IMG/VR virus record: IMGVR_UViG_3300020463_000009
Coordinates: 32,001 to 96,000 of that record
Reading direction: 5' to 3' (one strand)
DNA: 64,000 bases
DNA from: a virus
Below are positions 7,001 to 49,560 of the stretch, piece by piece; position 1 is the stretch's first letter; each line of letters opens with the position of its first letter. The notes under the pieces were generated by a model. It was not told the origin of the DNA. It did not search any database and saw nothing but the letters and a program-made list of their open reading frames with translations. A program made the position numbers and the translations under genes.

Positions 7001-7771
7001 GATATTGGTACAGGTGGTATATCAACTACAAATTATCCTGACTTAAATGGTTATACACAAGCGCCAGACCAATCAGACGAAGTTTACGATTTAGATAGAG
7101 GTAGAGTATTCTATACTTCAACCGACCAAGATGGTAACTTTAGAGTTGGTGAATTGTTTAGAGTAGAACAATCAACAGGTAAGGCAACATTGAACGCAGA
7201 AGCTTTTGACCTTTCTGGATTAAGACAATTATCTCTAGGTTCAGTTGCATTAGGAAATTTTGGTGCAACAATTTCAGAATTTAGTACAGATGGTACTTTA
7301 GGCGATAACTCTGATAACGCTCTCGTAACCGAGAAAGCAATTAGAACATTCGTTGAAAACCAATTAGGTGGTGGTCAAAACAACTTGACCGTTAACTCTG
7401 CTCAAATTGGTGATATAACAATTTCAGGAAGTAATATCTCTGCTTCAACTGGAAATACAACAACATTTACAACAATTCCACAAACAAGTGTCTCACCAAC
7501 TAGTGCAAATCACTTGACTAACAAAGCATACGTAGATGAAAATGTAACCCCTAATTTACAAACTCTATCTTTTGATAAAGACACAGGTCAATTGAATAGA
7601 CAAGTGGTAACAAATTTTAATACGGTAACTCAAAACGTAGATACTTTAATTAATTCAGCTGAAGAAAATTTAGGTTTCGAAGTTATAAATGGTTCAATGA
7701 GAATTGAGTTAGACAAAGGTGGTAATTTAGTTTATAGAACAATAGCTGATGAATCAAAAGCTGAGGCATAA
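4070..7771 (+). CDS. Large tail-fibre or receptor-binding scaffold protein with N-terminal W-x3-T-x-Y-x3-D-x-V-x-YGG repeats
   Basis: About six tandem ~50-aa CBM5/12-like repeats, then a YYVSTSGTD...PW.TI..A beta-helix-like region; C-terminal HDFLDIGTG...GRVFYTSTDQDGNFRVG motif of marine T4-like virion proteins. Confidence 0.7.
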   Translation: MADFVLGRLKFHFKGAWTTGTAYIKDDVLTYGGNAFVCKVNHTANADFYVDLNHGTPKWAKMAGGFEYKGNWAATTLYKIDDIVTYGGSTYRCLTGHTSQADLYDDTAKWQTFAAGLAWRGDWATSTGYRNDDIVKYGANTYLCTTQHTSSGTTLDESKFTLFVSGLEFENSWSSSTLYQLGDIVTYGGYNYVAERANNNVIPYNNASDWKLFTTGFTNTGTWSNSTAYKTGDTVNHGGHYYVAKIDGTNQEPTGTTNSYWDLVVEGLYWRNNWATATAYKIGDAVSYGASSYRAKTNHTSSASNRPDVSGQTDWDLLAEGDSNATLTTRGDILTRDATQRVRLPIGAAGTFLKSDGTDVVWALPNVANKVYYVSTSGTDNTDTGRGTSPELPWRTIKYACSQVASDTTNFKTIKVATGTYTEQLPITVARKTAIIGDNLRSVTVSPDTTTDNGAGAGISSDGSTPNNRQTMFRLNDSVTLSGMTFSGMTGQLAGSASADGLTRPTTATGATATGVVCALDPGSGPTDTSVHIVARSPFVQNCSSIGTRAVGIKIDGSLHNAGNKSILANDFTQVIDNGFGVWILNGAKSELVSVFTYYCYVGYLADSGGVMRSLNSNNSYGERGSVASGVDPNETPVTATVNNRDNEAIIGRALVSNAGVYRLEQEYAGETYTSASETITGSGANANFTADIVDGAVKHIDTTTNGAGHFTTIGVAQGGSTTTIRLAAADTQADDFYNGMRITVTTGTGSGQTAYIGDYATATKTATVFKEDGSAGFDVFGPTSVAVAPDATTNYEIEPRVTITGGGSPTRNALARVIIENQIIKKFLIIDGGAGYSTAPSISVTDPNATTVGTGTATIGDGVISRWTYVAAGSGYKQENTAGTVSGDGYAEILPVGATVKTSGLASQPKAGSSIVFSNASSVSYIIVSVLAHANGGITSMEVSPNISKTNAPTQGVTATVRQNYSNIRLTGHDFLDIGTGGISTTNYPDLNGYTQAPDQSDEVYDLDRGRVFYTSTDQDGNFRVGELFRVEQSTGKATLNAEAFDLSGLRQLSLGSVALGNFGATISEFSTDGTLGDNSDNALVTEKAIRTFVENQLGGGQNNLTVNSAQIGDITISGSNISASTGNTTTFTTIPQTSVSPTSANHLTNKAYVDENVTPNLQTLSFDKDTGQLNRQVVTNFNTVTQNVDTLINSAEENLGFEVINGSMRIELDKGGNLVYRTIADESKAEA

Positions 7772-31106: not shown

Positions 31107-32291
31107 ATGGCCGAGACAGACAATAAAGTAGAGGCTTTGGAAAAAGAAGCGGTAGTAGAAGCTAGTGCTAACCCACAAGCTGACGCTCCGAAGAAGAATG
31201 CTGTACCGGCTGAACCTTCAAAAATGTCCAACGAGGCAGAAGATTTAGGTCCAGCGGTTGTAAAACCTACAGATTCTAATCCAGACGCTACGAAAAAAAC
31301 TAAACAAGTTTCTGGCGATGCTCAACAAAAATCTGCTGGTCCTGCTGACGCAATGCCAAAGATTAAAGAAGAGTCGGAAGAAACTAACGAAGGTTCGGAA
31401 GAAATCAAAGAAGGCGAAATGCCAAAAGCAGCTCTTGACGCTCTTAAAAAACATAATGATAAGAAAGAAGACAAGTCCGAGAAATCAGAATCAGATGAGA
31501 AAAAATCTGAAAAAGAAGGATACGGAATGAAGTCAGCTTCTTACAAAATGAAAAAAGAGGAAGTTGATGAGCATATGGACGCATTAGTAGCTGGACAAGA
31601 TGATTTATCCGAAGAATTTAAAACAAAAGCTGCAACCGTTTTTGAATCAGCAGTCAATTCTAAAGTAAAAGAAATTGCTGAAACAATGGATGCAGATTAC
31701 AACACGAAATTAGAGCAAGAAAGTGGAAAAGCAAAAGAAGAGTTAACTGAAAAAGTTGATTCTTACTTGTCTTACGTTGTTGAAGAGTGGATGAAAGAAA
31801 ACGAAATCGCTCTTGAACGAGGAATTAAAGGCGAGATTGCTGAAGACTTTATTACAGGTCTTAAAAAACTTTTCTCTGAACATTATATTGATGTTCCAGA
31901 TGAGAAGTATGACGTTTTAGAAGCGCAAGCAGCTAAAATTGAAGAACTGAATAAAAAGTTAAACGAGCAAATTGAATCGAATGTTGAACTAAACAAAGAC
32001 AACGCAGAGAAAACTAAAAACGAAGTTTTAGCTGATGTTGCTAATGATTTAGCAGACACTCAAAAAGAAAAATTTGCTAAACTTGCTGAAGAAATTGAAT
32101 ACTCAAACGCAGAAGACTTTAAGAAAAAGTGTGAGACTATTAAAGAATCATATTTTGGACAAAAGAAAGAAGCGACTGAGTCTTTAGATGATGTGGCGGC
32201 TGATGGTGAACTTTCAAACGAAGATTTATCAAAAGCAATGGCTGCTTACACTGCCGCTATAAGCAAAACAAAAGATATTAAAATATCTTAA
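31107..32291 (+). CDS. gp22: Prohead scaffolding protein gp22
   Basis: LSEEFK.KA.TVFE.AV, VD.YL.YVVEEW..EN..A...G, YIDVP; acidic coiled coil before the major capsid gene. Confidence 0.93.
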   Translation: MAETDNKVEALEKEAVVEASANPQADAPKKNAVPAEPSKMSNEAEDLGPAVVKPTDSNPDATKKTKQVSGDAQQKSAGPADAMPKIKEESEETNEGSEEIKEGEMPKAALDALKKHNDKKEDKSEKSESDEKKSEKEGYGMKSASYKMKKEEVDEHMDALVAGQDDLSEEFKTKAATVFESAVNSKVKEIAETMDADYNTKLEQESGKAKEELTEKVDSYLSYVVEEWMKENEIALERGIKGEIAEDFITGLKKLFSEHYIDVPDEKYDVLEAQAAKIEELNKKLNEQIESNVELNKDNAEKTKNEVLADVANDLADTQKEKFAKLAEEIEYSNAEDFKKKCETIKESYFGQKKEATESLDDVAADGELSNEDLSKAMAAYTAAISKTKDIKIS

Positions 32292-46882: not shown

Positions 46883-46915
46883 TGGAGGCAGGTGTAGTGG
46901 CCTGCCTCCACTTTT
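46883..46915 (+). terminator. Hairpin terminator after the AAA+ gene
   Basis: TGGAGGCAGG-8 nt-CCTGCCTCCA perfect 10-bp stem followed by CTTTT. Confidence 0.75.
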
Positions 46916-46931
46916 ACACAGGAAAGAATTT

Positions 46932-47057
46932 ATGTTTGATATAGAACACGCTATTTTATTTTTGTTTATTTCAATACCATTTAGTGTATTGATAATGTAT
47001 ATAATATTAAGATGTATTAATGCAACAGATAAAGACAGATTGAAGGGAGGTAAATAG
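46932..47057 (+). CDS. Small single-pass membrane protein (41 aa)
   Basis: MFDIEHAILFLFISIPFSVLIMYIILRCINATDKDRLKGGK; AGGA RBS; stop abuts the rpsU start. Not in the ORF track. Confidence 0.55.
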   Translation: MFDIEHAILFLFISIPFSVLIMYIILRCINATDKDRLKGGK

Positions 47058-47267
47058 ATGACAATTACGGTTGAAGTAAGAAAAGGTAATTTAGAAAAAG
47101 CTATGCGAGTAATGAAGAAAAAACTTGCTAAAGAAGGCTTACTAAAGACTCTAAAACAGAAACAATACTATGAAAAACCTTCAGAAATTAAGCGTAGGAA
47201 GAAAAAAGAAGGTATCAAGAACTTCAAAAAGAAGATGAAAAAACTTGAACTTACAAGAGGTTACTAA
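47058..47267 (+). CDS. rpsU: Ribosomal protein bS21
   Basis: V.V...N.EKA.R..KKK...EG....LK...YYEKPSE..R..K; GGAGG RBS. Confidence 0.93.
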   Translation: MTITVEVRKGNLEKAMRVMKKKLAKEGLLKTLKQKQYYEKPSEIKRRKKKEGIKNFKKKMKKLELTRGY

Positions 47268-47304
47268 TTTCCCCGCCTGTGCCTAGATGATGATAAATAT
47301 AGAT

Positions 47305-47556
47305 GAGCGGGCTATTCGTAAGACCTGCTGGCGTGGAGAGGCGACCAGAGCCTGTTAAATGGATTAACGAACTGGTAGAGTTTGGTGGTTCTCTTCAAAA
47401 ACCACCAACGAATTATGAGATTAAGGTGTAGCGAGAGTGAACCTTAATGGTGGATTGTTTTAGCATTTGCGCTTAGTTTCGCACCACCTGTAAAAAAACA
47501 AACTAAAGCTGCTGTGCGATTTTGGTAGTTTACGCCACAAATATTAAAACTACCAC
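47305..47556 (+). ncRNA. Putative structured non-coding RNA with multiple hairpins and pseudoknots
   Basis: GC-enriched intergenic tract with perfect helices TTGGTGGTT/AACCACCAA, ATTAAGGT/ACCTTAAT, GGTGG/CCACC and TGGTAGTTT/AAACTACCA; GATAAATA late-like promoter at 47292. Confidence 0.65.
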
Positions 47557-47580
47557 TTGAAATATAGGAAATAATAACTA

Positions 47581-47615
47581 TATAAATAACTATGATACGC
47601 TCATAAGAGGTATCA
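47581..47615 (+). promoter_or_regulatory. Late promoter and 5' leader hairpin of hsp20
   Basis: TATAAATA at 47581-47588, then TGATAC-g-CTC-ataa-GAG-GTATCA hairpin; AAGGAGG RBS. Confidence 0.65.
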
Positions 47616-47648
47616 AATATTAACTTTGCTTAAAATAAGGAGGTTCTA

Positions 47649-48089
47649 ATGACCAATCACAAAGCAATTCATTCAATTTTTACTGGATTAAGACCGTTCA
47701 CGGTGGGGTTTGACGATATGTTCGACCATTTTGATGAGCTAACTACTCACTTACCAAATATGACGGCTAACAACTATCCACCATATAACATAGTAAAGAC
47801 TGGTTCTTTAACATATGATATAGAAGTGGCACTAGCAGGTTACGGTAAAAAAGACGTATCAGTTAATTACGAGGATAATGTCCTTAAAATTGATTCTGTA
47901 AAAGCTAAAGAAGAGAATAAAGTAGGTGTAATACATAAAGGTATTGCTAAAAGAAGTTTCTCTAAACACTTTACAATAGCAGATGATGTTGAAGTAAAAG
48001 GTGCTGAACTAAAAGATGGTCTTTTAAAAGTGTCTCTGGAAAAAATTATACCAGACCACAAAAAGGCTAAAACAATTACTATCAAGTAA
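47649..48089 (+). CDS. hsp20: Small heat-shock protein Hsp20 (IbpA-like)
   Basis: VGFD..F, NYPPYNI, IEVALAG, HKGIA.R.F...F..A..VEV..A.L.DGLL...L. Confidence 0.96.
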   Translation: MTNHKAIHSIFTGLRPFTVGFDDMFDHFDELTTHLPNMTANNYPPYNIVKTGSLTYDIEVALAGYGKKDVSVNYEDNVLKIDSVKAKEENKVGVIHKGIAKRSFSKHFTIADDVEVKGAELKDGLLKVSLEKIIPDHKKAKTITIK

Positions 48090-48100
48090 TAATTTAAGAG

Positions 48101-48144
48101 AGGCGTCCCAGCATTGACAAAGGGACGCCTTTCGTGTATAAATA
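48101..48144 (+). terminator. Hairpin terminator after hsp20, overlapping a promoter
   Basis: AGGCGTCCC/GGGACGCCT stem with TTGACA in the loop; TATAAATA at 48137-48144. Confidence 0.7.
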
Positions 48145-49486: not shown

Positions 49487-49560
49487 GCGGCTATCGTATA
49501 AAAGTATTACGGCGGGTTACCAACTCGCAGACGTAGGAGCGTTACCTACTAGCCGCTCCA
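49487..49560 (+). tRNA. Non-canonical tRNA-Gly, anticodon ACC
   Basis: Acceptor GCGGCTA/TAGCCGC with T73 and encoded CCA; anticodon arm GCGGG-TTACCAA-CTCGC; T arm GTAGG-AGCGTTA-CCTAC; D arm GTAT-AAAAGT-ATTAC. Confidence 0.88.

Follow-up and report, generated by a model that had tools for sequence, protein, structure and literature searches.

We analysed a window of 64,000 nucleotides (nt) of viral DNA, positions 32,001 to 96,000 (G000:C1:32001-96000) of the 109-kb IMG/VR virus record IMGVR_UViG_3300020463_000009, whose completeness is estimated at 76%. Our comparisons give good support to the conclusion that positions 47306-47555 of its plus strand, between the genes for ribosomal protein bS21 (rpsU) and Hsp20 (hsp20), specify a real, conserved, strand-specific and pseudoknot-rich RNA of an uncatalogued, modular family. 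An earlier note on this DNA, drawn from the sequence alone, had placed here a folded phage non-coding RNA (ncRNA) of about 250 nt, in a region lacking a long open reading frame (ORF), raised in GC and lying behind a late-promoter-like box. This description is confirmed to the position: the GC content is 0.43-0.46 in the element against about 0.30 in the flanks, and the box, GATAAATA (47292-47299, plus strand), is of T4 type and contains an ATAAATA (47293-47299) that is invariant in 49 of 49 aligned relatives and kept in 96 of 97 sequences aligned by covariance model (CM). That the element is a folded ncRNA is strongly supported by its conservation, by covariation that includes G-U pairs fixing the plus strand, and by the lack of any conserved ORF. 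The source is a T4-like pelagimyophage, i.e. a SAR11-type ocean phage, and the named phages closest to it are the Pelagibacter phages Mosig EXVC030M and HTVC008M.

Relatives of the element were collected by several routes. A bS21 protein search of IMG/VR yielded 68 loci, and a pattern independent of bS21 (TAAGWCCT-N2-3-GGCGTGGARGG) yielded 42 loci in viral and more than 120 in metagenomic sequence. With a 5'-domain profile, 213 pelagimyophage loci were recovered at E < 1e-8, representing 120 distinct sequences and 35 clusters at 85% identity. The RNA begins no more than 120 nt from the bS21 stop codon in 211 of the 213, the remaining two lying at contig ends. Its distance to hsp20 is 274-493 nt in 139 loci and 1.2-1.9 kb in 31 others, where further genes with promoters of their own are inserted before hsp20 and the RNA remains beside bS21. 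Both Mosig and HTVC008M, which are cultured phages, carry the RNA, in HTVC008M as a minimal copy, and the copy number is one in each of these genomes and in the record studied here. A search of 185,579 prokaryote species genomes with the core pattern returned 12 chance matches in unrelated bacteria, none of which was confirmed by nhmmer. Among the checks that the earlier note had put forward, the comparison of rpsU-hsp20 intergenic regions gave the conservation and covariation described below, and the scan against Rfam gave no family match.

The case for structure is comparative, since the sequence folded by itself gives no significant result (z = -1.6 on the plus and -2.0 on the minus strand, with a method that does not handle pseudoknots). 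MAFFT columns fell out of register at the pseudoknot stems, and CM re-alignment with descriptor-style parsing was used instead; with a covariance model of the 5' domain (R1), in which crossing helices were written as pseudoknots, 97 copies including that of HTVC008M were recovered and re-aligned. In this domain 91.6% of cells are paired, as against 71.8% in shuffles (0/500) and 30-50% with slid partners; the covariation score is 0.504 versus 0.161, and both partners vary in 21 of 27 pairs. The count for the 3' half, made on its own alignment and covering the M3 hairpin with its tip, the apical stem of module M4 and the pairing TTAGTTT/AAACTAA, gave 97.3% paired, where shuffles reached 87.0% (0/500) and slid controls 14-58%. 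Ten helices show compensatory changes and G-U pairs, and because the G-U pairs are conserved the structure can be assigned to the plus strand. These observations also bear on the reading that the region is not an RNA gene, being either a small protein gene or a set of signals at the DNA level only. It is true that the window copy contains a 42-amino-acid (aa) ORF (47303-47431), and that the Mosig annotation calls two tiny ORFs in the element region; however, the 42-aa frame, the sole ORF present, is unconserved, the longest ORFs of relatives vary in frame, strand and place, and 1-nt indels separate close relatives, so that together with the compensatory changes and G-U pairs this reading is highly improbable and effectively refuted.

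From 5' to 3' the window copy runs P1 - J1 - PK-A - PK-B - M3 - M4/PK-C - PK-D, with four pseudoknots, PK-A to PK-D (all coordinates on the plus strand). The transcript most likely starts 6-7 nt 3' of the late-promoter box, at the foot of P1, to judge from the positions of the two. P1 (47306-47329) is a 5' hairpin, AGCGGG/CCTGCT, with the conserved loop CUAUUCGUAAGA; it is paired in 99.6% of cases, and two of its pairs change on both sides (CG/GC/GU and CG/UA). The joiner J1 that follows (47330-47341), GGCGUGGAGAGG, is conserved and purine-rich, includes a GGAG resembling a Shine-Dalgarno (SD) sequence and enters stem 1 of PK-A with its 3' end; within it GGCGUGGA is nearly invariant. No conserved pairing partner for J1 was found in the relatives, and targets complementary to it within the window are fewer than expected by chance. 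The long-range pairing that the earlier note envisaged for this segment, of TGGCGT-GGAGAG with ACGCCA and CTCTTC, is lost in relatives that carry other alleles of the helices concerned. Upstream, between the bS21 stop codon and the promoter box, lies a further conserved box, GCCTGTGC (47275-47282), kept in 44 of 47 aligned RNA-bearing relatives; three more copies in the window are on the minus strand, all within coding sequence, and look like chance. Two further pairings were considered by eye, one between this box and P1 or J1 and the other between the P1 loop AAUUC and a conserved GAAUU before M3; neither showed covariation, and both were dropped.

The helices that the note had listed within the 5' domain, namely AGCGGG/CCTGCT, ACCAG/CTGGT enclosing GTTAA/TTAAC, and AGAG/CTCT with TTGGTGGTT/AACCACCAA, are all supported by covariation in relatives. 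One pairing had been overlooked: AGGC (47339-47342) pairs with GCCT (47350-47353), so that the ACCAG/CTGGT region is a pseudoknot too. This is PK-A (47339-47376), in which AGGC/GCCT forms stem 1, ACCAG/CTGGT (47344-47348/47372-47376) stem 2, and GTTAA/TTAAC (47354-47358/47364-47368) an enclosed hairpin. About 14 complementary variants of its stem 2 occur, all four stem-2 pairs change on both sides, and helices 2-5 of the 5' domain are 76-91% paired. PK-B (47377-47408) is of H type, with AGAG/CTCT (47377-47380/47391-47394) as stem 1, TTGGTGGTT/AACCACCAA (47382-47390/47400-47408) as stem 2 and an A-rich loop 3. Each stem has about 10 variants, the stem 1 helix being 91.6% and the stem 2 helix 97.7% paired, and in 10 of 11 pairs both partners vary. 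Among the alleles of stem 1 are AGUAG/CUACU, AGCAG/CUGCU, GGUAG/CUACC and CACAG/CUGUG, and among those of stem 2 UUGAGGU/ACCUCAA, UGGUGGU/ACCACCA, UGGUCGUU/AACGACCA and UGGGCUU/AAGCCCA.

In the 3' half, M3 (47420-47448) is the hairpin ATTAAGG/CCTTAAT, interrupted by an internal loop and tipped by GC-GAGA-GU; its outer arms, ATTAAGGT/ACCTTAAT, lie at 47420-47427 and 47441-47448, as had been noted. It is 93.8% paired and six of six pairs change on both sides; at the tip, which takes the form GC-GNNA-GU in relatives, one pair is always G-U and the other CG or GC. Covariation in relatives supports both this hairpin, which had been described with its GAGA tip, and the pairing TTAGTTT/AAACTAA. The latter forms PK-C, in which TTAGTTT (47474-47479) pairs with AAACTAA (47500-47505) across the outer helix of M4, GGTGG/CCACC (47449-47453/47484-47488); M4 and PK-C together occupy 47449-47505 and include an apical AGC/GCT stem around AUUUGC (47462-47473). 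Helices 3 and 4 of the 3' domain, which belong to M4/PK-C, are 100% and 98.8% paired (AU/GC; UA/CG/GC). For the M4 outer helix the list of complementary variants in relatives is the sole basis, the shuffle control not discriminating (12.4 vs 11.7). The inner TGCG/CGCA stem proposed for this module proved specific to the window type, relatives keeping RGC/GCY around the AUUUGC loop. PK-D (47513-47555), the terminal H-type pseudoknot, has as stem 1 TGTGCG/CGCCACA (47513-47518/47533-47539), with one bulge, and as stem 2 TGGTAGTTT/AAACTACCA (47523-47531/47547-47555); it, too, is supported through its many complementary alleles, listed for both stems. Its likeness to the first pseudoknot of the note, here PK-B, is borne out by 5' halves that are 71% identical over 24 nt.

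The family is built of modules that come and go. One of them, M2 (TTCGGGCTCATTGG ... GAGGGTGAGACCTACCTC ... GCCC), is a central multi-branch module with a length of at least about 95 nt; its covariation is clear by eye, and 67 of 119 copies have it. It is absent from the window copy and present in the closest relatives, whose flanks are 93-95% identical; the window copy can be read as a natural deletion experiment, which would show M2 to be dispensable. Set against two such relatives, L015 and L021, the loss falls at about 47409-47421: the relatives read ...GAAUUAUGAG|UUUCGGGC...GAAUGUUGU|UAAGGUG and the window ...GAAUUAUGAG-A-UUAAGGUG, an excision that is clean at the helix boundaries. M4 is absent from one large clade. 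In bS21-hsp20 loci that diverge further the modules are P1, a plain hairpin, M4 and PK-D, with neither PK-A nor PK-B. In HTVC008M and its kin (L002:1706-2136; L080-L085) bS21 is followed by an ORF of 105-111 aa with no Pfam family and then by a minimal RNA of about 100 nt, in which P1 is accompanied by another hairpin sharing the CUCGUAAAU loop and by a single H-type pseudoknot. Across lineages, only P1 and the terminal H-type pseudoknot are universal. The PK-D allele of the window co-occurs with four different PK-A alleles, and because PK-A and PK-D alleles combine in this mosaic fashion we consider that modules are exchanged by recombination. Scans of viral contigs with 16-mers from M3 and M4 returned many chance matches in the coding DNA of unrelated viruses, and also brought up further divergent bS21-hsp20 loci and one stand-alone hairpin of M3 type. 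This hairpin (GUAGGCGG-UGUAGCGAGAGUGAA-CCGCCUAC) lies directly after a stop codon at about 7192-7207 of an AT-rich viral contig (L017, IMGVR_UViG_3300020470_004808), where no match to the 5' domain of the RNA was present within the 8.6 kb examined; the M3 hairpin motif may travel independently.

The family is absent from Rfam and, as far as we found, from the literature, in that publications on pelagimyophages and phage ribosomal proteins yielded no mention of the RNA; it is new as a family, although of a familiar kind, the orphan structured RNAs of marine phages. Against Rfam 15 (4227 models) there are no matches in the window at gathering thresholds, positions 47200-47700 give only noise at E <= 10, and nine full-length relatives give only tRNAs at E <= 1. 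The earlier note had offered a manA-like motif as one identity, and manA (RF01745) gives no match; wcaG (RF01761) matches a partial hairpin only (model positions 58-84, 16.4 bits against a threshold of 42), and the flanking genes are those for bS21 and Hsp20, not sugar genes. The RNA shares with manA and wcaG the character of pseudoknotted, GC-raised motifs of marine phages and metagenomes whose function is unclear, but those are short elements in the 5' untranslated regions (UTRs) of sugar-metabolism genes, whereas the present RNA is larger, modular, and sited between bS21 and hsp20. The preQ1-I and SAM-II/SAM-V aptamers give no match at E <= 10; stem 2 of the present knots is 6-9 bp and covaries freely, and no metabolic gene lies downstream. 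There is likewise no Rfam match to OLE RNA, nor were oapA, oapB or oapC seen as neighbours. An autoregulatory leader of a ribosomal protein was rejected as an identity, the element lying 3' of the bS21 stop codon, whereas such a leader precedes the gene in its message and overlaps the ribosome-binding site.

A transfer-messenger RNA (tmRNA), also on the note's list, is not what the element is: ARAGORN makes no call in the window or in 19 related loci, no tRNA-like domain was found, and no tag frame is conserved. A two-piece tmRNA has been reported for pelagimyophages (PMC9004378), and the true alpha_tmRNA (RF01849) of HTVC008M (145103-145414) and of Mosig (111505-111808), with the tag ANFNEYALAA, is distinct from the RNA locus; Mosig also has a glutamine riboswitch at 92197. 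Neither the alpha_tmRNA nor the riboswitch was found in the record studied here, which at 76% completeness does not establish their absence. The string of pseudoknots in alpha_tmRNA, a ribosome-linked RNA, resembles the present one in being serial, of H type and individually replaceable; unlike it, the RNA here has no tRNA-like domain, tag frame, ARAGORN call or CM match. The individual knots also recall the autoregulatory pseudoknot of gene 32 in phages T2, T4 and T6, which Du, Giedroc and Hoffman are reported to have described in 1996 as a protein-binding nucleation site in T4-like phages. The likeness lies in a short stem 1, a first loop of 1-2 nt spanning a stem 2 of 6-9 bp, and a longer, A-rich last loop; the difference is that gene 32 has its knot at the 5' end of the regulated mRNA, whereas the knots here are serial, alternate with other modules and stand in a gene-free unit.

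The 3' boundary of the unit is set by its neighbour. The hsp20 gene (47649-48089; Pfam HSP20, E 4e-15) has its own control region, of a host-like heat-shock type, outside the RNA (47556-47654, plus strand), comprising an RpoH-like CTTGAA (47556-47561), TATAAATA (47581-47588) and a leader with two hairpins (47591-47654), and this block travels with hsp20 when other genes are inserted. The leader includes a conserved hairpin, GAUAC-GCUCAUAAGAG-GUAUC, and a ROSE-like hairpin in which, in the predicted fold, AACUUUGCUU masks AAGGAGGUU (SD sequence AAGGAGG); over the full length of the ROSE_3 model it scores 23.4 bits (E 0.003), short of the threshold, 43. We regard it as a candidate phage-borne RNA thermometer, ROSE-like by its modelled fold. 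ROSE thermometers (RF02523), whose last hairpin hides the SD sequence behind a U(U/C)GCU strand, belong to alphaproteobacterial small hsp genes, and the likeness is confined to this adjoining hsp20 leader, the RNA itself (47306-47555) having no ROSE match. PK-D abuts the -35 element of whichever promoter comes next, CTTGAA ... TATAAATA for hsp20 or TTGACA-N17-TATAAT for inserted genes. Of 119 parsed elements, 12 have a U-run behind the pseudoknot taken as terminal, and in the HTVC008M-like locus L083 the sequence after the pseudoknot, ...ACUGCCCC-UUUUUUU, resembles an intrinsic terminator. The arrangement suggests that the RNA most likely ends at or just past PK-D. With a promoter and a ROSE-like thermometer already belonging to hsp20, the RNA probably forms a unit by itself.

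These boundaries bear directly on the possibility that the RNA acts in cis, as the long structured 5' leader of late transcripts running into hsp20 or whichever gene comes next, where it would control 5' stability, translation or processing. No intrinsic terminator separates PK-D from hsp20 in the window, hsp20 is close by in the 139 loci with a short spacing, and P1 sits at the predicted 5' end, as known 5' stabilisers do. However, this reading is weakened by the hsp20 control region being complete in itself, with a promoter block (CTTGAA ... TATAAATA) and a ROSE_3-like leader that move with hsp20; in the 31 loci where unrelated genes with their own sigma70-type promoters stand between the RNA and hsp20, the RNA stays put; some lineages have the U-run right after the terminal pseudoknot; and to serve unrelated downstream genes would be unusual. 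On balance we consider a leader function possible but doubtful.

On the other side of the element, the question arises whether it belongs to the message of the bS21 gene (47058-47267, plus strand; Pfam Ribosomal_S21, E 1.1e-15), as a 3' UTR element that blocks 3'-to-5' exonucleases, ends or processes the transcript, or serves as a downstream autoregulatory operator for bS21. Ribosomal proteins commonly regulate their own mRNAs via structured RNA, and the RNA stands directly after the bS21 stop codon in 211 of 213 loci, with the GCCTGTGC box between stop and RNA and no terminator between the two. Nevertheless, the invariant late-promoter box right before P1 points to a start there, an ORF intervenes between bS21 and the RNA in HTVC008M-like phages, the known operators of ribosomal proteins sit in 5' leaders, and 250-400 nt of swappable modules far exceed the needs of a 3' protector. 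We consider this reading unlikely.

A trans-acting RNA unrelated to bS21 is a further alternative. Such an RNA might act as a sponge or decoy that occupies a host nuclease, a defence protein or an RNA chaperone, or might have a structural or catalytic role in late infection, for example in assembly. The late promoter box would suit such a role, and so would the series of pseudoknots, whose A-rich third loops are frequent in protein-binding knots; an arms race would fit the mosaic swapping of modules among lineages, and with insertions on both sides the RNA behaves as an autonomous module. Against this, no defence or toxin gene is linked to it, SAR11 genomes contain few defence systems, the core pattern found no homolog among the prokaryote genomes searched, and no invariants like those of a catalytic core were recognised. 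The specific version proposed in the earlier note, a ToxI-like decoy, finds no counterpart in the locus. ToxI-type (type III) antitoxin RNAs have tandem direct repeats of about 34-36 nt beside a ToxN/AbiQ endoribonuclease gene; here there are no tandem repeats, the lone direct repeat (24 nt, 71% identity) having copies 140 nt apart, and the neighbours are bS21 and hsp20, with no toxin gene nearby. Overall we take a trans role apart from bS21 to be rather unlikely.

The proposal we favour, tentatively and with a probability of about 0.3, is that the element specifies a discrete, late, stable RNA acting in trans through protein binding, with bS21 or the platform of the 30S subunit as its likeliest partner. 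Transcription from the late-promoter box late in infection would yield a discrete, stable RNA that would serve in trans as a protein-binding scaffold or sponge; its partner would be bS21, in its phage or host copy, or the 30S platform, and the outcome would be a tuning, late in infection, of the choice of ribosomes or mRNAs. This partner is proposed because of the fixed place beside bS21, the late promoter, the serial pseudoknots with A-rich third loops, and the precedent of OLE, a structured ncRNA that bS21 binds at a helix mimicking an SD-anti-SD duplex (PMC12054373). The OLE-bS21 ribonucleoprotein (RNP) of Bacillota resembles the situation here in that a large structured ncRNA is tied to bS21 outside the ribosome, and in that one large clade of the present family has a PK-B stem 2, UGAGGU/ACCUCA, which is close to GGAGGU/ACCUCC and hence SD-anti-SD-like. 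Unlike OLE, the RNA here has no sequence or Rfam similarity to it, is phage-encoded, 100-400 nt long and modular, lacks OapA, OapB and OapC, and is tied to bS21 by gene order only. The ribosome-binding RNA acting with bS21 that the earlier note suggested is possible, with conserved synteny and the OLE precedent as its basis.

Several observations weigh against this preferred proposal. In HTVC008M-like phages the 105-111 aa ORF parts bS21 from the RNA; PK-B stem 2 covaries freely and does not keep its SD-anti-SD likeness; and bS21 is core to all pelagimyophages with gene order conserved among kin, so that adjacency is weak evidence of a functional tie. A CM search 3' of bS21 in Pelagibacter phage Kolga and Pseudomonas phage PA5oct, bS21-encoding phages of other groups, found no RNA, and without a terminator between RNA and hsp20 in the window, late transcripts may read into hsp20. 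A more specific form of the proposal, which we consider improbable, makes the late-expressed RNA a sponge or RNP partner of bS21 that switches ribosome composition. Phage bS21 would join host ribosomes early in infection, and the late RNA, made from the gp55-type promoter and in some clades having an SD-anti-SD-like helix, would capture bS21, stripping it from 30S subunits or keeping it off them, so that translation would shift to phage late mRNAs.

Some further features of the neighbourhood were recorded. A hydrophobic ORF of 41 aa (MFDIEHAILFLFISIPFSVLIMYIILRC...; 46932-47057) ends in a TAG stop directly before the bS21 ATG (TAGATG), an arrangement in which the two may be translationally coupled; the Mosig annotation has a small ORF at the matching position. 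GC-rich hairpins with short T-runs are visible by eye upstream of this ORF (about 46886-46916) and after hsp20 (about 48104-48136), although a consensus terminator scan flagged neither, nor any terminator between bS21 and hsp20. In PA5oct (L260, MK797984, 170955-172486), an unrelated Pseudomonas jumbo phage, bS21 is followed by two small ORFs and then by an annotated heat shock protein gene, and the upstream AAA+ gene is ClpX-like, as against CobS/MoxR-like in pelagimyophages; that bS21 and a small hsp recur as neighbours in such distant phages may be more than coincidence. Relatives have one or two tRNA genes just 3' of hsp20 (L078:3702-3851, L073:3699-3769, L063:3687-3757 and L030:3703-3773; Rfam tRNA, 43-56 bits), and in HTVC008M a tRNA-Gly(ACC) lies just 5' of bS21 (L002:1413-1486). 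An odd tRNA-Gly(ACC) proposed earlier at 49487-49560 of the window was not recovered, ARAGORN calling no tRNA across the whole 64 kb.

Pelagimyophages infect SAR11, the most abundant bacteria of the ocean, and nearly all of them keep this RNA, once per genome. It is rare for a new large structured RNA to be found, and such finds have repeatedly opened new biochemistry. Its place beside a phage bS21, taken with the binding of bS21 to OLE, leads to the testable idea that phages may retune host ribosomes; were the sponge or RNP form of the proposal true, the element would be a virus-encoded RNA switch of ribosome composition and the second independent extraribosomal partnership of bS21 with an ncRNA, after OLE. 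Even if its function is modest, such as in mRNA stability or processing, the family offers a clean natural data set for the evolution of pseudoknots and for the gain and loss of modules, and two cultured phage-host pairs, those of HTVC008M and Mosig, make its function directly testable.

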